Assembly (NCBI GenBank): GCA_964459145.1
Contig: CAYWKC010000001.1
Location: 40,200-104,199, forward strand
Direction of reading: 5' to 3'
Source of the DNA: an uncultured Candidatus Saccharibacteria bacterium
GTDB taxonomy: Bacteria > Patescibacteriota > Minisyncoccia > Phycocordibacterales > UBA12079
Length of the DNA: 64,000 nucleotides
Positions 4,949 to 53,729 of the stretch are shown one piece after another. Position 1 is the stretch's first letter. Each line of letters begins with the position of its first letter. The notes beneath the pieces are model-generated. The model worked only from the letters and a program-made list of their open reading frames with translations. It did no database searches and was not told where the DNA came from. The position numbers were made by a program, and so were the translations under genes.

Positions 4949-4956
4949 AATGTGTT

Positions 4957-5470
4957 CTTTTATATCTATAAGCCGGATTCTGTTTACCCGACCATCGTAA
5001 AATGGTTTAGGGTTTGATAGCCATTTATCTAGGAAGATTGTTACCAATCTTCTCAAGCGGTACTTCCGGCACCACTTTTTTGAGAAGTTAAACTTCTCAA
5101 AAAAGTGGTGCCGGACACGACCTTGCACTTAGGTAAGGATTTAGCCGTTTCACCCCCTCACCCAGAACAGTGCCAACAAATTAAAATTTGTCAAAAATTA
5201 ACTAAATTTTAATTTACCATTAGGGACTGTTTTTGTGCTATTTTATGTTTGCAAAGCAAACAGCACTGTTCTGGGTGAGGGACTACACCCCCGAAAGGAT
5301 GCCTAAAATTCTTTCGAATTTTAGCGTCTCTGCTCGCACCTCTACAACCACAAAGTTGACGACGGGCGTTACCCGCTACCTTGCTCCGAGCACCAAAATA
5401 GTGCTGGAAGTGTCCGGACTTTCCTCCAAGCCTTATAAAAATAAGGCCCAGTAACTATCCGATATAAAAG
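4957..5470 (-). ncRNA. rnpB: RNase P RNA (bacterial type A) with large insertions
   Basis: Minus strand shows GGAGGAAAGTCCGGAC (P4 5' strand), GGTAACGCCCG (P10/11), ACAGAATCCGGCTTAT (P4 3' strand) and a P1 pairing CTTTTATATC/GATATAAAAG. A TAGTATAAT -10 box lies just upstream on the minus strand. Confidence 0.8.
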
Positions 5471-5707: not shown

Positions 5708-6826
5708 ATGTCTCAAAAAAGAAGTTTTGATAAAGTTTTTGCAACGATAGTAATTGTCTTGATTTTGGCTGGCTTTTTTTTGTTTTTATCGGCTTCTCTA
5801 AGTTTATTGGCTAAAGAATCAGGGGCTCAATTTTCTTCAATTTTTTTTAGCCAATTTGTTTTTGGTTTAGGACTAGGTTTAGTTGCTTTATTTATTTTTT
5901 CAAAAATACATTATCGTAATTACAAAAAATACACTTTTTATCTATTCTTAATTTCTTTAGTTGTCTCTTTTTTGGTTTTTGTCCCCAATTTAGGGTTTGA
6001 ATATAATGGGGCTCATCGTTGGCTGTCTATTTTGGGAGTGTCTTTTCAACCAGCTGAACTGCTCAAGTTTAGCTTTGTTTTATATTTTGCCACTTTATTA
6101 TCTTCTTTTAAAGACAAAACTCACCAATGGAAATATCATATTTTGCCTATTTTAATTCTATTGGCAGTGGTCTCTGTTATTTCCTATTTACAACCAGATT
6201 ATGGAACTTTTATGATAATTGCTGTAACTGCTATGGCGATGTTTTTTGCTTCGGGAGTTCGTCTTAAGTATTTTTTTACGACTATTCTTATCGCAGGGGT
6301 CGGAGTAATTCCTATCATTTGTTCTAAACAATATATTTTGCAGAGATTTCTAACTTTTTTTAGTCCGGGGGAAGATGTTTTGGGAGCCGGTTATCAAATT
6401 AAACAATCACTAATTGCTATTGGTTCTGGTGGTTTCTGGGGAAATGGTTTTGGCAAAAGTATCCAAAAATTTGGAAGTTTACCTGAAGCAATTGGAGATT
6501 CAATTTTTTCTGTGACAGCTGAGGAATGGGGCTTTTTGGGAGCATCTTTTTTGGTGATACTTTTCTTCTTGTTTACTTATCGTGGTTTGAAAATTGCTTC
6601 TCGAGCAACAGATTCGTTTGGTGGACTATTAGTAGTGGGACTTGTTATACTAATAGCATCACAATCGTTTGTGAACATGGGTTCAATGTTGGGAATTTTC
6701 CCGATGATTGGAATGCCTCTTTTGTTTGTTAGTAAAGGAGGAACAGCTTTGTTATTTACTTTAGTAGAGGTGGGAATAATTTTGAATATTTCTAAATATC
6801 AAAAAAATAAAAATTATAAATTGTAG
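5708..6826 (+). CDS. ftsW: SEDS-family peptidoglycan glycosyltransferase FtsW/RodA
   Basis: About ten TM segments; C-terminal FtsW/RodA motifs. Lies immediately upstream of murG. Confidence 0.8.
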   Translation: MSQKRSFDKVFATIVIVLILAGFFLFLSASLSLLAKESGAQFSSIFFSQFVFGLGLGLVALFIFSKIHYRNYKKYTFYLFLISLVVSFLVFVPNLGFEYNGAHRWLSILGVSFQPAELLKFSFVLYFATLLSSFKDKTHQWKYHILPILILLAVVSVISYLQPDYGTFMIIAVTAMAMFFASGVRLKYFFTTILIAGVGVIPIICSKQYILQRFLTFFSPGEDVLGAGYQIKQSLIAIGSGGFWGNGFGKSIQKFGSLPEAIGDSIFSVTAEEWGFLGASFLVILFFLFTYRGLKIASRATDSFGGLLVVGLVILIASQSFVNMGSMLGIFPMIGMPLLFVSKGGTALLFTLVEVGIILNISKYQKNKNYKL

Positions 6827-9400: not shown

Positions 9401-10712
9401 AATTAAAGCAAGGTTTTTTGCTTGGAAGAGTAATTTTCAAGTGGGGATTTTGTTGGTATTAGTGGCAGGAATAATTTGTCCAATCGGTATAAGGGCTGAC
9501 CAGATTGATGAATTGAAAGCAGAAATTTCTAAGAGAAGTGTAGAGATGAATGTCTTGGAAGAGGAAATTGCTACTTGGGAAAAAGAAATTGAAATTATTG
9601 GTCAAGAAAAGCAAAGTTTGGACAGAGATATTAAACAATTAGATACCACTCAAAAAAAATTAAATTCCAGTATTTACTTAACCAGTAACCAGATAAATAC
9701 CACCAGTTTAAAAATTGAAGAATTAGCCATTGGGATAGATGAAAAAAAAGACGAAATTGAAAAAAATTCGAGGGCTTTAGCGGAAGCTCTACGGTCAATT
9801 AATGAACAAGAAAGTTATTCTCTGCTGGAATCTATGTTGTCTAACGATAAGTTGTCAGAGTTTTGGAATGATTTAGAAGGTTTGCAAAAAGTGCAGACAG
9901 AAATAAGAAACAAGACCAGTGTTTTGAAAGAATTAAAAGAAGAATTGACTGTTGATAAACAACAGTCAGAAGAAGAGAAAGAAGATTTGTCTTCATATAA
10001 AATAAAATTGGCTGATCAGAAAGAAATCGTAGAAAATAATCAAGAAGAAAAAAGTAAATTACTTACGGAAACAAAAAACAAAGAATCAAATTATCAAACA
10101 ATTTTGGATGAGAAAAAAGCATTAAGGGACCAGTTTGAGGCAGAATTGATGGAGTATGAGAATCAGCTAAGATTGGTGATTGACCCTAATAGTATTCCTG
10201 TAGCGGGACATATTTTATCATGGCCAGTAGAGAATGTTTACATCACTCAATTTTTTGGCCATACACCTTTTGCTACTGCTAATCCGCAAGTATATGGAGA
10301 GGGGGGGCACAATGGAGTTGATTTTCGGGCGTCTATCGGGACAAATATAAAAACAGTACTGAGTGGAACTGTGACAGCGGTAGGAAACACAGATATTAAT
10401 TGTCCGGGAGCTTCTTATGGCAAGTGGGTTTTAGTAAGACATAATAATGGATTGTCTTCTTTGTATGCGCATTTATCTTTGATTAAAGTTTCAGTGGGGC
10501 AGGTGTTAGTGACAGGGGATACAGTTGGTTATAGCGGAAATACTGGATACTCCACTGGTCCTCATTTGCATTTAACTATTTATGCAACAGAAGGAGTTGA
10601 GGTAAAAGAATATCCTTTTAAGAGTTGTAAGGGAGCAACAACAATTATGCCTTTGGTTACTCGTCGAGACGCCTATTTAAATCCCTTGTCTTATTTACCA
10701 GAGTACAAGTAG
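9378..10712 (+). CDS. M23 (LytM-type) metallopeptidase with N-terminal coiled coil, EnvC-like
   Basis: Long coiled-coil N-terminus; C-terminal GHNGVDF...HLH M23 motifs. Start moved to the internal ATG at 9378 to avoid overlap with gltX. Confidence 0.75.
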   Translation: MQLEKLIKIKARFFAWKSNFQVGILLVLVAGIICPIGIRADQIDELKAEISKRSVEMNVLEEEIATWEKEIEIIGQEKQSLDRDIKQLDTTQKKLNSSIYLTSNQINTTSLKIEELAIGIDEKKDEIEKNSRALAEALRSINEQESYSLLESMLSNDKLSEFWNDLEGLQKVQTEIRNKTSVLKELKEELTVDKQQSEEEKEDLSSYKIKLADQKEIVENNQEEKSKLLTETKNKESNYQTILDEKKALRDQFEAELMEYENQLRLVIDPNSIPVAGHILSWPVENVYITQFFGHTPFATANPQVYGEGGHNGVDFRASIGTNIKTVLSGTVTAVGNTDINCPGASYGKWVLVRHNNGLSSLYAHLSLIKVSVGQVLVTGDTVGYSGNTGYSTGPHLHLTIYATEGVEVKEYPFKSCKGATTIMPLVTRRDAYLNPLSYLPEYK

Positions 10713-12313: not shown

Positions 12314-12418
12314 TCCAGAAGAAGTAGGGCGGTTTGGGGTGAATAGGGTGGAATTATGGAGTTATTCGTTTCGGGAGGATTTGGGGAGGTCCGACCTCCC
12401 GAGATTGGTGGAGTAGGA

Positions 12419-13621: not shown

Positions 13622-14020
13622 AGAAAAGAGTAGGGGATTAATAGTCAAAAGTCCATAAAGTCAGAAAAATTTGCAGAGCAAATTTTTCCCTTTTGACTTT
13701 TGACTTTATAAACCTTCGACTTAAAATAATTATGTGGGAAAAAATTTTGGTAATAGTTTTATTTGTTTTTGGTTTAGTTTTATATGCTTTTACTGTGCAT
13801 TTAGATAAGGTCTTAAATGATCCCATTATTCAGAATAATGTAGACTTTACTTATTAAGCATAGAATTTAAAAAACCCTCCGCCAAGCTTCCCCCAAACAG
13901 AACATAATATTTTTTTCTCCCTACGGGTCTGAAAAAAATTTATTCATTCCTTCTTCGCTCTGGCTCCGAAAGTCTGTTTGGTGGAACTTGGTTACGGGTT
14001 TCGAGAATTGGTAATTTCTT

Positions 14021-16659: not shown

Positions 16660-16676
16660 AAAATAAGTAAAAATAA

Positions 16677-16706
16677 AAATTCCGAATTAATTAATTCGGA
16701 ATTTTT
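16677..16706 (+). terminator. terminator after rpmA
   Basis: AAATTCCGAATTAATTAATTCGGAATTTTT. Confidence 0.6.
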
Positions 16707-16738
16707 ATTTTTATATATAATTTTTTATTTATATAATT

Positions 16739-16793
16739 AATTTATGGCTATGCGATAGCCATAAATTATTATGGCTATCGCATAGCCATAATT
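16739..16793. repeat. two adjacent copies of a 29-bp REP-like perfect palindrome
   Basis: AATTTATGGCTATGCGATAGCCATAAATT then TTATGGCTATCGCATAGCCATAA (inverted centre). Same element at 25148-25176 and 53564-53592. Confidence 0.8.
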
Positions 16794-16875
16794 GGTTTTT
16801 AAAACCCAGACCCAAGCCCATACCATTTTAAAAACTAATATAGCCAAAGTTCCGGAATACTATAAAAACTTAAGT

Positions 16876-17319: not shown

Positions 17320-17418
17320 ATTAGTTGTTTATTTAACTTTTTATATTTTATCTCTATTTGAAGAAAAAGCAATCAATAAAATACTTAGTTAATACTTAGT
17401 TATTTAGGCACCCGGTGC

Positions 17419-18714
17419 CTAAATGTTGTTGAGAGCTTCGATGGCTTTATCTAATTGGGGGTCTCCTCCACTTTTTATGTAGTCAACGTCGTCTTCAGTT
17501 ATCTCAATCTCAATATCAGGTTTTAATCCTTCATGGGAAAAAGAATTTCCATTGGGTGTCAACCAGCGTGCTACAGTTACTTTTAGAGAAGTTTCTGGGG
17601 TTATCTTAATTAATTCTTGAACAGAACCTTTTCCAAAGGTCTGAGTGCCAACCAAAATGGCTTTACCATATTCTTGTAAAGCTCCAGCTAAAATTTCAGA
17701 GGCGGAAGCCGAACCTTCGTTAACCAAAATAGCCATTTTTAAATTATCATTAAAAATATCGTAACCTTTGCTGTAATGAATTTTGTTTGCTTCTTTTCCG
17801 CCATAATCCTCAGTGACAACTACTTTTCCTATAGGGAGAAACCAACTGGCAATATCTGTAGCAGCTTCTAAATAACCACCTGGGTTTCCTCGCAAGTCCA
17901 GAATTAATTTATCAGTTTCTCCATTTTGAATGAATTTTCTTAAGGCCTCTCTAAAAAGATTAGGAGAAACAGCCGTAAAACTATAAAGACGAATAATAAA
18001 AACTCCATTTCTTATTTCAGACCCCTCTTTAACTTCAGTTTCAATCGTAGGAATATCAATAACATCTCGAGTGATAGAAACTTCAAAAGATTCTTTCTCC
18101 CCTTCTCTTGCTATCAACAGGACCACTGCTGTGCCTTTTTCTCCACGAATAAGTTTAACCGCATCAGTGGTGTCCATGTTTTTGGTTGATTTTCCGTCAA
18201 TTTCTAAAATTTTGTCTTTAGGTTGCATTCCAGCTCTTTCCGCTGGGGTATCTTTTAGAGGAGCAATGACGATTAAAGTATTGTCTTTAATTCCAATTTC
18301 CATACCGACTCCTTCAAAGTTGCCTTCAATGTCATCTTCAAACATTGCCGATTCCGACGGTGGCAAAAAAACAGTATAAGGGTCTCCAAAAGAATTAGTC
18401 AGGCCTTGGATTGCTCCCCAAATTTTATCTTGAGTGGTTATTTCTTTATCCTCGTCTTCTTTATCTTTAACGAACCTCTCATCTAAAATTTTCCATGTTT
18501 CCCAAAATGGTTTTAAACTAACTGCTTCAAATTCAGGGTTTTCTTTATCAAGAATGTTTGAAATTGATTCATTTTTAGAAAAATTAAATTGTGAGCCGAA
18601 GACAAAACTTCCAACCAAAAGAACTACAATGATTACACAGAAACCAATTTTTTTAGTTGTTTTTTTCTTAAAGATTTTCTTAATTTTTTTTAGAAAACGG
18701 TTGAATAATTCCAT
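17419..18714 (-). CDS. ctpA: C-terminal processing peptidase (S41, CtpA/Prc-like)
   Basis: N-terminal TM, PDZ domain, LDLRGNPGGYL and S41 catalytic region. Confidence 0.85.
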   Translation of the reverse strand: MELFNRFLKKIKKIFKKKTTKKIGFCVIIVVLLVGSFVFGSQFNFSKNESISNILDKENPEFEAVSLKPFWETWKILDERFVKDKEDEDKEITTQDKIWGAIQGLTNSFGDPYTVFLPPSESAMFEDDIEGNFEGVGMEIGIKDNTLIVIAPLKDTPAERAGMQPKDKILEIDGKSTKNMDTTDAVKLIRGEKGTAVVLLIAREGEKESFEVSITRDVIDIPTIETEVKEGSEIRNGVFIIRLYSFTAVSPNLFREALRKFIQNGETDKLILDLRGNPGGYLEAATDIASWFLPIGKVVVTEDYGGKEANKIHYSKGYDIFNDNLKMAILVNEGSASASEILAGALQEYGKAILVGTQTFGKGSVQELIKITPETSLKVTVARWLTPNGNSFSHEGLKPDIEIEITEDDVDYIKSGGDPQLDKAIEALNNI

Positions 18715-23747: not shown

Positions 23748-25148
23748 ATGGAAGTGATTAATAATAATCCTAATTTAAGAATTCCTCCTCAAAACATTGA
23801 TTCCGAAAAGGCCTTGTTGGGTTCTATTATGTTAAGACCAGAAGTCATCTATGATGTTTTAGATATTATTTCTGAAGATTGTTTCTATTCTGAAAAACAT
23901 CGCATTGTGTTCAAAGCAATGTTAGATTTATTTTCTAAAAAAGAACCGATTGATTTATTAACTTTATCTTCAATTCTGAAAGAACAAAAACAATTAGAAC
24001 AAATTGGTGGAACTACTTTTTTGACAGAATTAGTAGAAACAGTTCCCTCTTCAGCCAATGCTGAACACTACGCTAAAATTGTTCACAAAAAATATATGAT
24101 GCGACGATTGATTGGAGCGGGAGAAGAAATTTCCAATTTGGGTTATAACGAAACAGAAAATTTGGAGATAGCTTTAGACAAAGCGGAAAAAAGTATTTTT
24201 ACTGTAACGGGGTCTTTGATTTCCCGTTCTTTTATAAAAATAAAAGAGGCTTTAGGTGAAGCTTGGGAGAGATTGGATAGATTACATAAATCAGAAGGTA
24301 AATTAAGAGGAGTGCCAACTGGTTTTAAAGAATTAGATGATAAATTATCTGGTTTTCAAAATTCTGATTTAATTATTATCGCAGCTCGCCCTTCAATAGG
24401 AAAAACATCTTTGGCTCTTGATATTGCTAGAAAGGTGGCGATTAATTATAATTTGCCAGTCGCTATTTTTTCTTTAGAAATGAGTTCCCAACAATTAGTG
24501 GACAGAATGTTGGCGGCTGATTCTAATGTAGATGCTTGGAAATTAAGAACAGGACGGTTAACAAGAGATGAAGAATTCAATTCTATTAGGGAATCCCTGG
24601 ACCGTCTCTCTAAAGCCCCTATTTTTATAGATGACCAAGCTTCAAATAATATTTTGAATATGCGTTCGGTAGCCCGTAAGCTAAAAAGACAACATGGTTT
24701 GAAATTAATTATTGTTGATTATTTACAATTGATGGCACCGACTGAATCTAGAGGGTCTGATTCAATGGTACAACAGGTCACAGAAATTTCTCGCTCTCTT
24801 AAACATTTGGCTCGAGAATTAGATATACCAGTAATTGCTTTGTCCCAGTTAAGCCGAGCAGTAGAAAGTCGAGGGGGGCGTCCTCGATTGTCTGATTTGC
24901 GTGATTCTGGTTCTATTGAACAAGATGCTGATTTAGTAGCATTTATTCACAGAGAAAATAATGAAGATGGTTCGGGTAAATCATGTTTAGCCGAAATTTT
25001 GATAGAAAAACACAGAAATGGACCTACGGGAAAAGTAGAACTTAATTTTAATGAGAAGAAAGCTACCTTTCAGAGTGTAGAAAAAAATGATTTTAGTGAT
25101 TTTGCTATTAAAGAGGAAGAAGAAACTGAACAAAGCGATGATTTTTAA
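23748..25148 (+). CDS. dnaB: replicative DNA helicase DnaB
   Basis: N-terminal DnaB domain, Walker A (AARPSIGKTSLALDIA), H4 motif. Start set at MEVINNN; the upstream 55 codons of the ORF lie in the repeat element. Confidence 0.9.
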   Translation: MEVINNNPNLRIPPQNIDSEKALLGSIMLRPEVIYDVLDIISEDCFYSEKHRIVFKAMLDLFSKKEPIDLLTLSSILKEQKQLEQIGGTTFLTELVETVPSSANAEHYAKIVHKKYMMRRLIGAGEEISNLGYNETENLEIALDKAEKSIFTVTGSLISRSFIKIKEALGEAWERLDRLHKSEGKLRGVPTGFKELDDKLSGFQNSDLIIIAARPSIGKTSLALDIARKVAINYNLPVAIFSLEMSSQQLVDRMLAADSNVDAWKLRTGRLTRDEEFNSIRESLDRLSKAPIFIDDQASNNILNMRSVARKLKRQHGLKLIIVDYLQLMAPTESRGSDSMVQQVTEISRSLKHLARELDIPVIALSQLSRAVESRGGRPRLSDLRDSGSIEQDADLVAFIHRENNEDGSGKSCLAEILIEKHRNGPTGKVELNFNEKKATFQSVEKNDFSDFAIKEEEETEQSDDF

Positions 25149-25176
25149 ATTTATGGCTATGCGATAGCCATAAATT
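25148..25176. repeat. 29-bp REP-like palindrome overlapping the dnaB stop codon
   Basis: AATTTATGGCTATGCGATAGCCATAAATT. Confidence 0.8.
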
Positions 25177-39933: not shown

Positions 39934-41574
39934 TCAAATCAATAATCTTACCACCCTTATTTCATCAAAAGAATATTTATCACCTAAAATTCTTTTTACA
40001 GGGGTTAATTTGTCTCCCTTGATTTTCTGCCAAGCTTGTTTAATCTTTTCAAAATCTTTAATATCGTTTTTCAAATAATCTAGATTCACTTTATTAGTCC
40101 CCTGTTCCCCTACTAATTTTTCTAAGTGATTGATAATAGTTGCTATTGTCATTTTTCTCTCTCGAGCCATATCTTCAATTGTCATTTCTTGAACAACTAA
40201 TTGTTTGGTCAAATCATAAGTTGAGATTTTTTCTCCCACCGGCACATCTACCACAGCTTTATTTAAAAATTCTTTTTGTAAATTATTTTTTCTTTCTTTG
40301 GGAGTTATTTTTAATTGACGGGCTGTTTGTTCAGATTTTTTCTTCAATTCTTCATCAAAACTCAAAATATCTTTATTTATAGATAAGGCCATTTTGTTAA
40401 TTCCTTTCAAATATAAACCATCAAGAGACCTCACGCGAGACAATGCCACATAACCCATTCCAGCCACGAAAGACCTTGAAAGGTCAATTTCAGCCGCATC
40501 CAAGCTCATTCCTTGGCTCTTATGAACAGTAATCGCCCAAGCTAACCGAAGCGGGATTTGAGTGATTTTAGCCTTAATTACTCCGTCTTCTTCTATGTGC
40601 CATGATTCATAATTTACGATTATCTCTTTTCCCCCATAAGTTCTAATCACTGGCAAGTTTCCGTCAAAATCAACTACCACTCCTAAGGTCCCATTAACAT
40701 AACCAACTTCAAAATTATTTTTTACAAACATTACCACTGCATCTTTTTTTAATTGCAGTTCTTCCATTGCCAAACAACTTTTTTTCAAAGTTTCAGATAA
40801 CTTTTTTGTTCCGCTACATTGCATTTGGTAAATCTGAGGAAAGCCTTTAATTTTTTCTAATTGTTCAAAATTTAAGCGATCCACTTCCTTATTATGTGTG
40901 TAAAGTTTCGTTGGGACAATTTTCTCCTGTTTAATTTTTTGCCTTTTCCGTAAAAGCTCTTGAGTTTTTTTGCTGATTTCATTTTGCCGAATATCTTTCA
41001 AAATACTTAATAAGTCATCTTCTAAATCTTGTCGATATTGATCGCTTAAATAACAAATCTGTAAATCCATATTTTTCCAGATCTCAGCTTGATAAGCAAA
41101 ATCTACATTCATCCCCTTTTTATTAATTGGCGGAAGTTGAAAAAAATCTCCACATAAAACAATTTGTATTCCCCCAAAAGGTTCCGAGGATTGTTTGAAA
41201 GCTCGACAAATTTTATCTACAGTATCTAATTGCCAACCACTTAACATTGAAATTTCATCAATTACCAACACTTGAGTATATTTAAATTTTTTCTTGAGAT
41301 AATTTTTACTTGATAATTTTTCAATTTCAATATCAGACAAACTGTCCTTAATTCCTAAACCTGACCAAGAATGAATAGTAATTCCATTTAAGTGAGTCGC
41401 CGCAATTCCTGTAGAGGCAGTTATCCCCACTGGAACTTTTTTTGCTTTAAGAAAATCAATATATTGATTTAAAACATAGGTTTTCCCACTCCCCGCTGGA
41501 CCAGTCAAGAAAACATTTTTCCCCATCTTTAAAATTTCTAAAGTTTCTTGTTGTCGCATATTACATTTCCTCAA
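39934..41574 (-). CDS. Pif1/RecD-like SF1 DNA helicase with C-terminal HTH-like region
   Basis: Walker A GPAGSGKTYVL, motif II VLVIDEISMLS, C-terminal helical or HTH segment. Confidence 0.65.
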   Translation of the reverse strand: MRKCNMRQQETLEILKMGKNVFLTGPAGSGKTYVLNQYIDFLKAKKVPVGITASTGIAATHLNGITIHSWSGLGIKDSLSDIEIEKLSSKNYLKKKFKYTQVLVIDEISMLSGWQLDTVDKICRAFKQSSEPFGGIQIVLCGDFFQLPPINKKGMNVDFAYQAEIWKNMDLQICYLSDQYRQDLEDDLLSILKDIRQNEISKKTQELLRKRQKIKQEKIVPTKLYTHNKEVDRLNFEQLEKIKGFPQIYQMQCSGTKKLSETLKKSCLAMEELQLKKDAVVMFVKNNFEVGYVNGTLGVVVDFDGNLPVIRTYGGKEIIVNYESWHIEEDGVIKAKITQIPLRLAWAITVHKSQGMSLDAAEIDLSRSFVAGMGYVALSRVRSLDGLYLKGINKMALSINKDILSFDEELKKKSEQTARQLKITPKERKNNLQKEFLNKAVVDVPVGEKISTYDLTKQLVVQEMTIEDMARERKMTIATIINHLEKLVGEQGTNKVNLDYLKNDIKDFEKIKQAWQKIKGDKLTPVKRILGDKYSFDEIRVVRLLI

Positions 41575-47682: not shown

Positions 47683-48375
47683 TTAACCCCATTGTTTGGC
47701 TTTGAGAGCTTCCTCGGCCGCTGATTGTTCTGCTTCTTGTTTAGAAACCCCTTCTCCCTCTGCCACTAATTTATTGTTTAAAAATACTCCCACTCTAAAT
47801 CTTTTATCATGGTCAGGTCCAGTCTCTTCTAAAACTTGATAATTGGGTGTTATTTTCACAATTTCTTGAGCTTTTTCTTGAAAATTACTTTTGGCATCTT
47901 GCCACAAATTATTTTTAACCACTTCATTTATCTTTCCAAAAAAGTTATCAGCAATAAATTTTTGAACAATGACATAACCTTGGTCTAAATAAATTGCCCC
48001 AATAATCGCTTCTACTGCATTGGCCATAATAAAAGTCCGTGCTCTGCCTGTATCTTTAGCTTCACCCTTTGATAATTGTAAAAAATTATTTATTTCTAAT
48101 TTCTCTGCTACTTGAGATAAAGAAGTAGTATTGACTAAAGCTGACCGGTAAGCTGTTAAAGCTCCTTCATTCTCTTGTGAAAATTTTTCATAGAGATAAT
48201 GAGTAGTCACCAACTCCAAAACAGCATCACCTAAATACTCTAATCTTTCGTTATGTTCAGAAACTTCATTTTGATGTTCATTAACATAAGAACGATGAGT
48301 TAGAGCTGTTTTTAGTAATTCTTTATTCTTAAATTTTAATCCAATTTTTTCTTCAAATTTTGTAAAATCAATCAT
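47683..48375 (-). CDS. rnc: ribonuclease III
   Basis: ERLEYLGDAVL signature; C-terminal dsRBD. Confidence 0.9.
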   Translation of the reverse strand: MIDFTKFEEKIGLKFKNKELLKTALTHRSYVNEHQNEVSEHNERLEYLGDAVLELVTTHYLYEKFSQENEGALTAYRSALVNTTSLSQVAEKLEINNFLQLSKGEAKDTGRARTFIMANAVEAIIGAIYLDQGYVIVQKFIADNFFGKINEVVKNNLWQDAKSNFQEKAQEIVKITPNYQVLEETGPDHDKRFRVGVFLNNKLVAEGEGVSKQEAEQSAAEEALKAKQWG

Positions 48376-48517
48376 ATTTTTCTTATAAACGAAGCGAATT
48401 AGAAAAATATGACCCTACTAAACCAAATTTTGTAGAAATTTGAGTCATTTGATTTTTTGTTAAAAAATCAAATGATATTTAGTATGGGTGATTTTAATAA
48501 TTCCACACTATTAATAA

Positions 48518-53300: not shown

Positions 53301-53558
53301 GCATCAGAAGGAGTCACCACTGTTGTGGCTGGTTTAATTGAGGATTGTAGACCAATTTTAACCAGAAAGGGAGATAAAATGGTCTTCCTCAAATTATCAG
53401 ATTTTAGTGATAGCATAGAGGTAGTCGTCTTTCCTAAAATTTATTCAGACTTTGTTGAATTATTACAAAATGAAAAATGTGTTTTAATTAAAGGTAGAAT
53501 TTCAAAAAGAAATGAAGACACTTCTCTTATTGCCGAAAGCATCCGAGAATTGAAATAA
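50388..53558 (+). CDS. dnaE: DNA polymerase III alpha subunit
   Basis: N-terminal PHP domain (HLHTHSHYSLL), polymerase core and OB fold. Confidence 0.9.
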   Translation: MTMSEFSHLHTHSHYSLLNALPRIKELVARAKENTMPALALTDNGNMYGTIEFYQECLKQDIKPILGVDFYVALKTRHDRRSGIDNRNNRLVLLAKNEQGYKNLIKLVSQSFLEGFYYRPRIDKELIEQYKEGLICIMPQFSGEISKALQINDKEKAKEVAEWYKQNFGSFFLEITHHPEIEGQLKLKEQIINFANDEDLPLVACQDVYYLNPEDKKARDILMSIQNSIPHRRNEQEDFSFINQETANEYFKNTPEALKNIQKIVDKCNIKLDIDSWYFPDIEIPEGETYDSQLRKTTYAGIKERGLEKTKEIEDRIEYELEIIRNKGYSSYFLIVSDLIKHARSEGILTNTRGSAAGSLVSYLNFITKINPLELKLPFERFMNPERPGIPDIDVDIADNRRDDVIDYMRSKYGEEAVAQIGTFGTMAARGSVRDVTRALGHPYELGDKIAKLIPIGSQGFPMTISRALDMEEELRKLQEDNPDVREIIKYAQKIEGCARHISTHAAGVLISPTRIDDYTPVQLDKDGKIITQYDMYTGGQDGVVNLPKFDILGIKNLSILSNAIQLAKKLRRIEVDLDNIDLKNKKTYEMLARGETLGTFQLNGQGMTQYLKELKPKSIWDIMAMVALYRPGPMAFIPDYIKRKENPRLVTYLHPELKNILEPTYGIIIYQDDVMLIAVNLAGYTWAEADKFRKAMGKKIPEMMQEQKDKFFKGCSEHGIEQKIIQKLWETIETFAAYGFNKAHSASYGRVAYETSYMKANFPIEYMTALLMADSGDTEKIAEIITECKRLDIEVLPPDINESFTDFTIVLDKKTKKEAIRFGLQTIKNFGEGIANSIISERKKNGPFKSLIDFLERVQDRNLNKKSLEALTMCGAMDKLGERKQIVENMPDLLKYNKDFGLKPKEQDSLFGNNFQTPQITLRKVTPATTEEKLVWEKELLGLYISGHPLDKFSQQLLKSKTNLSRIKKRASEGVTTVVAGLIEDCRPILTRKGDKMVFLKLSDFSDSIEVVVFPKIYSDFVELLQNEKCVLIKGRISKRNEDTSLIAESIRELK

Positions 53559-53563
53559 ATCAA

Positions 53564-53592
53564 AATTTATGGCTATGCGATAGCCGTAAATT
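53564..53592. repeat. 29-bp REP-like palindrome after dnaE (one mismatch)
   Basis: AATTTATGGCTATGCGATAGCCGTAAATT. Confidence 0.75.
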
Positions 53593-53599
53593 TTGATTG

Positions 53600-53632
53600 A
53601 ACCCCCAAGAATCAGGGCCGGTTGGGGGGGGT
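53600..53632. terminator. bidirectional terminator (dnaE and tRNA-Glu)
   Basis: AACCCCCAAGAATCAGGGCCGGTTGGGGGGGTT with flanking T and A runs. Confidence 0.55.
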
Positions 53633-53657
53633 TAGGGTGTTTTTAGTACCAAAAGAG

Positions 53658-53729
53658 TAGCTCTACCGGGAATTGAACCCGGATTTCCGCCTTGAGAAGG
53701 CGATGTCCTAACCGTTAGACGATAGAGCC
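53658..53729 (-). tRNA. tRNA-Glu (CUC)
   Basis: Acceptor GGCTCTA/TAGAGCT, D-arm TCGTCTAACGGTTAGGAC, anticodon loop TTCTCAA, T-arm CCGGGTTCAATTCCCGG. Confidence 0.8.

Follow-up and report, generated by a model that had tools for sequence, protein, structure and literature searches.

The question raised by this locus is why a single short hairpin should recur behind rpmA, dnaB and dnaE in a 64-kb stretch of DNA with a G+C content of 33% (the window, meaning the whole stretch that was analysed), and what kind of element this hairpin represents. A sequence-only reading had reported that the repeat occurs four times, and the count holds: two copies are exact, one carries a single mismatch and one has an inverted centre, where none would be expected by chance. 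Its description as a perfect palindrome with a 12-bp stem has to be amended. The 29-mer, AATTTATGGCTATGCGATAGCCATAAATT when written out in full, has the form AATTTATGGCTAT-GCG-ATAGCCATAAATT, with 13-bp arms (three of the 13 pairs being G-C) around an asymmetric centre of 3 nt. Since the centre GCG is not palindromic, every copy of the 29-mer has an orientation. Pattern searches place the exact 29-mer at 16739-16767 and 25148-25176, and a copy with one mismatch, A to G at position 53586, at 53564-53592; matches were found in none of 100 dinucleotide-preserving shuffles of the window, the chance expectation being 0. The core TATGGCTAT-NNN-ATAGCCATA additionally recovers a fourth copy (16770-16790), in which the centre is inverted and reads CGC, against an expectation of 0.02. 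The four copies in the 64 kb are distributed over three intergenic sites. A relaxed search of the window revealed no additional or degenerate copies and no half-sites above chance. The possibility of a CRISPR array was rejected, as the copies are not regularly spaced.

At the first site, between the convergent rpmA and rplI genes, an exact consensus monomer with its GCG loop on the plus strand (16739-16767) is predicted to fold as a DNA hairpin of -11.3 kcal/mol (z = -6.7). It is followed directly by an inverted monomer on the minus strand (16768-16793), which presents CGC on the plus strand. The earlier description of two adjacent copies, the second with an inverted centre, is thus accurate as to arrangement, although the arms of the second copy are only 11 bp long (ATTATGGCTAT-CGC-ATAGCCATAAT at 16768-16792). 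Together the pair forms a REPIN/BIME-like inverted dimer (16739-16793, not assigned to either strand) which folds as a single 23-bp hairpin spanning 16742-16791 with a 4-nt loop; its predicted energy as DNA is -26.5 kcal/mol (z = -9.3), and as RNA it adopts an identical fold on both strands. The second site harbours an exact consensus monomer (25148-25176, plus strand) whose first base is also the last of the dnaB stop codon; 10 nt separate its end from the recR ATG. The third (53564-53592, plus strand), convergent with a tRNA-Glu gene, is the monomer with one substitution. The single mismatch had been noted correctly, but the copy starts 5 nt rather than 6 nt after the dnaE stop and is embedded in a longer, 19-bp stem (53558-53598), in which the substitution at 53586 gives a G.T/G.U pair on the plus strand; the hairpin is predicted at -15.6 kcal/mol on the plus strand and -13.4 kcal/mol on the minus strand. 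Single monomers as DNA reach about -11 kcal/mol each, with z around -6.5.

Across 20 unique copies from all sources the conserved block is exactly the 29-mer, with AATT at either end, and the consensus shows no conserved asymmetric flank and no GTAG or CGTC tag. GTAG is present only in the distant variant at locus L013, where it is paired inside the stem. No Rfam family reached its gathering score for any copy, and permissive E-values returned hairpin look-alikes such as miRNA models. The loop reads GCG on the plus strand at all sites in the window, two of which lie in a part with positive GC skew and one in a part with negative skew, a sample (n = 3) too small to test. The skew flips from positive to negative near position 40,000 of the window, where the genes turn mostly to the minus strand; this switch may mark a replication terminus or origin region.

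The gene context of the three sites was checked with Pfam and ARAGORN, which confirmed their 3' intergenic positions as well as the 1-nt overlap with the dnaB stop. Genes for L27 (16351-16659, plus strand) and L9 (16876-17319, minus strand) converge on the doublet. The DnaB stop codon occupies 25146-25148 and RecR is encoded downstream (from 25187, plus strand), whilst the DnaE stop (53556-53558) faces the tRNA-Glu gene at 53657-53729 on the minus strand. The view that the repeat is not a simple terminator is also reasonable, in that the single copies lack a T-run and separate terminator-like hairpins lie nearby: a bidirectional one at 16667-16714 and, after the dnaE copy, a G/C-rich one with trailing T residues at about 53600-53645. 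No terminator-like call was made at 25148-25176, nor on the sense strand at 53564-53592, both of which are without a T-run. Only the doublet with the trailing TGGTTTTT passes a simple terminator scan.

Several other structured elements were seen in the window. Terminator hairpins with a common AAAGTCCATAAAGTC-like motif occur at 13643-13700 of the window, at 2590-2690 of locus L048 and at 6405-6463 of locus L022; the window and L022 versions are 91% identical, and this looks like a conserved terminator-adjacent motif in these bacteria. RNase P RNA is encoded at 4953-5470 on the minus strand (Rfam, 105.8 bits), its 518 nt comparing with 367 positions in the model, and an insertion within it forms a perfect 25-bp hairpin (inverted repeat 5065-5089/5091-5115). 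A non-coding segment at 48371-48487, upstream of the minus-strand gene 47683-48375, is 83-84% identical to non-coding DNA of other organisms (L022 and L006) and contains a 14-bp perfect hairpin (48445-48475); it has no Rfam match at E <= 0.1.

Outside the window few copies of the repeat are known. An exact-pattern scan of one genome per species (185,579 species) gave 18 loci, only three of which have a GCG/CGC centre. All three belong to MAGs of Patescibacteria groups, namely two contigs of GCA_043812415.1 and one Saccharibacteria MAG. The remaining 15 have other loops and unrelated high-GC hosts, and were treated as chance or unrelated matches. An identical 21-mer, TATGGCTATAATATAGCCATA, with the loop AAT, is shared by L001, L002, L005 and L009, which are from four unrelated MAGs or genomes (Chitinophagales, an unclassified bacterium, Chloroflexota and Erwinia dacicola) of 47-65% G+C; this 21-mer has no relation to the GCG-loop REP. 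A metagenome scan yielded nine low-GC loci with the full 29-mer or close variants, some of them representing one site, and in eight of the nine the G+C content is 31-35%. Three metagenome matches at 49-56% G+C have only the 19-nt core in common and look like chance. One of the low-GC loci, L019, carries four copies in 3.4 kb and is considered below. Elsewhere the 29-mer adjoins a MazE-like/RelE-like pair, a MazF-like toxin operon, a PD-(D/E)XK nuclease gene and hypothetical genes. Among IMG/VR viral contigs no match to the REP core was found, so that there is no sign of phage carriage. A scan of viral contigs with CCCAGACCNAAGCCCANACC, the loop motif of a neighbouring hairpin, returned 50 loci which were dismissed as irrelevant; the spacing of these matches at multiples of 12 nt points to proline-rich coding repeats.

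Comparison with relatives indicates how the copies came to lie where they do. The nearest proteins to the window's RecR are named from Patescibacteria, Paceibacteria and Pacebacteria, and the dnaB-recR spacer was compared in three relatives, only one of which (L048) also spans the rpmA-rplI spacer. In the closest (L054/L055, RecR 88% identical) the dnaB-recR spacer holds a different hairpin, not the REP. In L048 (RecR 85% identical) ordinary terminators, without the REP, are found at rpmA-rplI and after dnaB, and there is an additional gene between dnaB and recR. In the third (L050/L051, RecR 81% identical) the dnaB-recR spacer consists of an ordinary A/T-flanked terminator, again without the REP. 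As the relatives lack the element at the orthologous spacers, the window copies are lineage-specific insertions. The dnaB-recR copy is kept in all six metagenome contigs of the window species; no insertion polymorphism that would indicate recent mobility was seen among these same-species samples. A link between the repeat and replication or essential genes, raised by the sequence-only reading, does not survive: the 29-mer elsewhere adjoins toxin-antitoxin, hypothetical and transposase genes, the corresponding spacers of relatives are empty, and the association with replication genes was coincidental.

A second structured element lies beside the REP doublet, at 16794-16841. This is a hairpin with a conserved 21-nt loop, CCCAGACCYAAGCCCAYACCA, which is also present at 3700-3760 of L054 and in L055, where its stem is altered by compensatory changes. 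In this relative with the 88% identical RecR, it fills the dnaB-recR spacer, the position at which the window has a REP. It has one copy in the window and no Rfam match; it may represent a small RNA, or else a further element dispersed between genes.

As to the placement of the copies relative to genes, non-coding DNA makes up 13.5% of the window, and all three independent sites fall within it (P = 0.0025). Over nine loci, 17 of 17 copies are intergenic; the sole overlap with an ORF, in L006, involves a 107-aa ORF in a hairpin-filled region which looks spurious. Classified by flanking genes, about five sites are convergent, six lie between genes of the same direction and two are divergent, one of the latter being the upstream region of the transposase gene itself. 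A like bias toward convergent and same-direction gene spacers is known from REP-rich genomes (PMC3733652). The orientation of the loop relative to the upstream transcript is mixed, at about seven GCG to three CGC. In seven of the 17 copies the start lies no more than 10 nt from a facing stop codon, whereas random non-coding positions in the same loci, with admittedly crude gene calls, would give 9.9% (binomial P = 8e-4). This excess may reflect a target preference, given that the 29-mer has AATT at both ends and frequently adjoins TAA, or tolerance of or selection for that position; a side effect at 3' ends is also possible.

A candidate for the activity that disperses the repeat is encoded at L019. 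Here an ORF at 857-1498 specifies a protein of 213 aa, P0001, which is bracketed by three of the four L019 copies. In L019 and L031 only 2 nt separate the stop codon of the transposase gene from an exact 29-mer, and upstream there are two further copies, those in L019 forming an inverted pair (766-784 and 821-839). P0001 contains an HUH motif (MPNHFHIF, with NHFH) and the motif YYILSNP. Its sole NCBIfam match is to the REP-associated tyrosine transposases (REP_Tyr_transpos, NF047646; E = 6e-8), albeit under the curated cut-offs, with 32.6 against 80 bits for the NCBIfam model and 17 against 23 bits for Pfam Y1_Tnp. Among 28 diverse homologues, 25 match the RAYT model (best E-value 2.5e-13) and 17 match Y1_Tnp, whilst no other family is matched. 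The P0001 family is a divergent clade outside the curated RAYT equivalog. It is a large one: clustered at 50% identity, it has 7,523 representatives at E <= 0.001 and 1,314 at the stricter E <= 1e-10, and its named sources are mostly Patescibacteria groups.

Structural comparison points in the same direction. In a profile search of the PDB with the homologue profile, the best match was 4ER8, the E. coli TnpA_REP (E = 9e-4), followed by ISDra2 TnpA. An AlphaFold model of P0001 (pLDDT 88.3) has 4ER8_A as its top Foldseek match in the PDB (E = 6.4e-5, probability 1.00, TM 0.43/0.54), the next matches being IS200/IS605 TnpA structures. Residues H69, H71, Y131 and N135 are invariant in the 28 homologues and align with H59, H61, Y115 and N119 of TnpA_REP, which are respectively the HUH histidines, the catalytic tyrosine and a metal ligand (PMC3479197). 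The description of the repeat as REP-like is thus backed by a cognate family of RAYT-type transposases. P0001 occurs on seven contigs on which the neighbouring genes are always alike. REP copies outnumber the transposase gene in every dataset: the window has four and no gene, and the gene is found on one of 12 metagenome loci.

The pairing of hairpin and transposase extends to homologues of P0001. All seven of the homologous genes examined are flanked by hairpins of like build, with stems that differ. The gene at L019 (100% identity to P0001) is flanked by TTATGGCTAT-GCG; L037 (73%) has TTATGGCCAT-CCG and GTCGGCTAT-GCG; L038 (66%) has five copies of TTTGTGGCTAT-GCG; L041 (52%) has CATTGGCTAT-CGC; L053 (48%) has CACTTGGCT(A/T)T-CGC; L013 (46%) has TGTAGGACAT-CCG; and L052 (44%) has ATACGGAGGT-GCG. 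The flanking hairpins are inverted in L019, L037, L038 and L041, and direct in L052, L053 and, apparently, L013; in L037, L038 and L041 the repeats overlap the 3' end of the transposase gene. When 17 flanking hairpins were aligned on the loop, 10 of the 13 stem pairs showed two-sided changes. Paired bases made up 93.7% of cells, a fraction which is partly built in, as the hairpins were chosen with a hairpin finder; in a control in which the partner was slid by 1-3 columns it was 28-42%. The fixed positions are two G-C (GG/CC) pairs, the closing T·A pair and, in the loop, the final two bases (xCG). The informative result is that the stem sequence tracks the transposase lineage whilst the apex stays fixed.

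Other hairpins of related build were encountered alongside this series. REP-like copies (GGCTATGCGAAAGCC) lie within the RAYT coding sequence of two homologues (L041, 2932-2946; L053, 8124-8148), where they occupy a variable linker some 58 codons into the gene. A GGAGGT-NNN-ACCTCC hairpin family is found at 12384-12400 of the window, at 2236-2250 of L006, at 1968-1982 of L048 and at 9955-9969 and 10692-10706 of L052; it lies on both sides of the RAYT homologue in L052 and beside a window-type REP in L006. It is probably a second REP type of these lineages, with one copy in the window. A single-copy hairpin at 17402-17424 of the window, ATTTAGGCAC-CCG-GTGCCTAAAT, overlaps the stop codon of an S41 peptidase gene and has the REP-like build of a 3-nt, S-rich loop.

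No homologue of the transposase was found in the 64-kb window itself by tblastn, and its connection with the window genome is indirect. A RecR protein 100% identical to that of the window (P0121) is encoded on contigs which reproduce the gene order and REP copies of the window; these come from ERZ27248937, ERZ27248920, ERZ27248895, ERZ27248939 and ERZ27248953 (ENA) and from 3300028168 (JGI). The P0001 contig is present in ERZ27248937, ERZ27248920, ERZ27248895 and ERZ27248939, together with the sister JGI datasets 3300028299 and 3300028191, so that it co-occurs with the window species in all four of its ENA assemblies. The related MAG GCA_043812415.1, which is syntenic with the window over 5.7-10.7 kb at 67-69% identity, combines a transposase 73% identical to P0001 (L037) with dispersed copies of the window type (L004 and L006). 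Tetranucleotide correlation does not discriminate, since r is 0.94-0.99 for all low-GC loci except L006, which has 43% G+C. On the basis of sample co-occurrence and identity of the repeat sequence, the window chromosome is likely to encode P0001.

Together this evidence makes it very probable that the four copies are REP elements, the non-autonomous mobile DNA of a REPtron system, and that the adjacent pair is an inverted dimer of REPIN/BIME type. The system has the structural features by which a REPtron is defined: an extragenic palindrome, inverted dimers, a repeat-flanked HUH/Y1 gene, the catalytic residues and the fold. In the proposed mechanism, one HUH Y1 transposase of the RAYT/TnpA_REP type, whose gene would lie elsewhere in the genome between copies of these hairpins, would recognise the hairpin when extruded on single-stranded DNA, and would cleave and rejoin beside it, seeding copies into intergenic DNA. 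This envisages a transposase that is active. The earlier suggestion of a protein-binding site would hold in so far as such transposases take REP hairpins as their single-stranded DNA substrates. Since the 29-mer is symmetric save for its 3-nt centre and has no GTAG tag, strand choice would be read from the apical T-GCG-A loop. TnpA_REP is known for strand-specific binding and cleavage of folded single-stranded REPs and for its single REP-bordered locus (PMC3333891, PMC3479197), and experiments on the small perfect-palindrome REPs of group 3 have shown a critical role for the bases of the loop (PMC8266576).

Once transcribed, the hairpins may also protect mRNA 3' ends, and those abutting stop codons may hinder termination, by analogy with E. 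coli REPs. The latter make the mRNA upstream of them more stable, and translation is reportedly lowered by REPs that lie no more than about 15 nt from a stop codon, in work by Liang, Rudd and Deutscher from 2015. Effects on mRNA decay, transcription termination or translation termination at abutting stops are therefore plausible for the present copies.

Such effects are the starting point of one alternative, which is that the repeat is a host-evolved RNA element at gene 3' ends, blocking 3' exonucleases, terminating transcription or modulating translation termination. Convergent genes enclose two of the three window sites, seven of 17 copies start within 10 nt of a facing stop (P = 8e-4), the substitution at 53586 keeps its pairing as G.U on the sense strand, and the doublet with TGGTTTTT matches a simple terminator scan, all of which would suit this explanation. 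It is nevertheless unlikely as an account of origin. Identity over 29 nt across unrelated loci and organisms would not be expected of independently evolved terminators, the single copies lack a T-run, and rpmA and dnaE are already served by separate terminator-like hairpins. Copies also occur between divergent genes and upstream of genes, with the loop in mixed orientation, whilst the orthologous sites of relatives are empty and hold ordinary terminators instead. The link to a transposase accounts for the dispersal, and an RNA function is best regarded as a possible secondary effect of the copies rather than their origin. An operator for a dimeric transcription factor or some other palindrome-binding protein, acting as double-stranded DNA, is the least credible of the alternatives and very improbable. 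A 13-3-13 inverted repeat is operator-like, the dnaB-recR copy lies just upstream of recR, and some copies elsewhere precede genes, for example near toxin-antitoxin modules. Two of the three window sites, however, lie between convergent genes, with no promoter to control, and the neighbouring genes share no common function; the orthologous sites in relatives are empty, and the co-variation of the stems with pairing kept argues for selection on a hairpin, not on a fixed duplex sequence.

A further alternative would keep the mobile origin and change the agent, the 29-mers being ends or solo ends of an autonomous element of the IS200/IS605 family. Transposase gene and hairpins would then move together as one unit, and the 29-mers would be ends left behind or PATE-like miniature derivatives. 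The protein does belong to the Y1/HUH superfamily, with IS200/IS605 TnpA structures as its next-best fold matches, and the direct flanking hairpins of L052, L053 and L013 are arranged as in IS200/IS605. The best matches, however, are to the RAYT family and not to IS200. There is no adjacent tnpB, the upstream and downstream hairpins are alike in sequence, where a distinct left and right end would be expected, and there are far more hairpin copies than transposase genes. Furthermore, the constant neighbours on the seven P0001 contigs indicate one locus, not multiple insertions. This explanation is accordingly considered improbable, somewhat more so than that of an RNA element, and REP elements mobilised by a RAYT-type transposase are the preferred reading.

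If the copies are REPs, a bolder proposal can be entertained tentatively, although it is more likely to be wrong than right. A distinct RAYT clade with untagged, loop-read REPs (invariant T-(G/C)CG-A apex and two G-C pairs) might persist in Patescibacteria whose streamlined genomes measure about 1 Mb; the REP copies would preferentially land or be kept against the stops of core genes such as dnaB and dnaE and there tune termination or mRNA decay. This would constitute a domesticated repeat system in organisms thought to be almost free of repeats. The known copy number is low, with four copies in 64 kb and three loci in 185,579 species-representative genomes. The excess at stop codons provides a testable link to the REP-dependent control of translation in E. 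coli.

Nearly all work on REP/RAYT systems concerns Proteobacteria, a few other phyla being represented by scattered reports, and full-text literature searches found no description of them in Patescibacteria; one preprint merely mentions a K07491 match in an archaeon. The kind of element is itself known, and what is added is that a cognate pair of hairpin and transposase exists in minimal Patescibacteria genomes. The co-varying pairs make up a compact natural series for asking how Y1 transposases read symmetric, untagged hairpins. There is also a warning for annotation, in that the hairpins should not be taken for gene-specific regulatory sites of dnaB, dnaE or rpmA.

A number of parallels can be drawn with known systems. 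The group 3 REP/REPIN-RAYT systems of Pseudomonas, Stenotrophomonas and Marinomonas (PMC3116915, PMC8266576) likewise have short perfect-palindrome hairpins, inverted dimers (REPINs), a REP-flanked RAYT gene and an intergenic placement mostly after genes. The loop nucleotides are critical there, and by analogy would be so here. The Patescibacteria system differs in having no GTAG tetranucleotide at the foot of the hairpin, in a longer transposase (about 210-240 aa, with a helical C-terminal region) which falls below the curated RAYT cut-off, and in a copy number that appears much lower, in a host lineage of small genomes. E. coli REP/BIME and TnpA_REP (PMC3333891, PMC3479197, PDB 4ER8) provide the best structural and profile match to P0001, with the HUH motif, the catalytic tyrosine and the asparagine metal ligand all kept, and they share a REP-bordered gene, apparently at a single locus, and REPs lying after genes. 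The structure-based sequence identity of P0001 and TnpA_REP is, however, only about 15%. In E. coli the REP is a bulged, imperfect palindrome to which an unpaired 5' GTAG is essential, whereas the stem here is perfect and untagged and the conserved part is the apical loop with two G-C pairs; furthermore, enterobacteria have hundreds of copies per genome, compared with the few known here.

IS200/IS605 elements such as IS608 and ISDra2 belong to the same superfamily and share the recognition of subterminal hairpins on single-stranded DNA. In those elements, however, the moving unit includes the transposase gene, its left and right ends differ and it has guide tetranucleotides, in contrast to the solo, identical hairpins which here far outnumber the gene. 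In the TIRYT or 'TIRtron' systems (PMC3733652) a RAYT-like gene is flanked by untagged self-complementary repeats belonging to small to moderate repeat families, and an overlap of these flanks with the 3' end of the gene can occur, as it does in L037, L038 and L041. The GGGGWSAS motif of some TIRs is absent here, and the likeness to TIRYT is drawn from the repeats and the gene that they flank. Overall the system resembles the group 3 REPs, and perhaps the untagged TIRYT systems.
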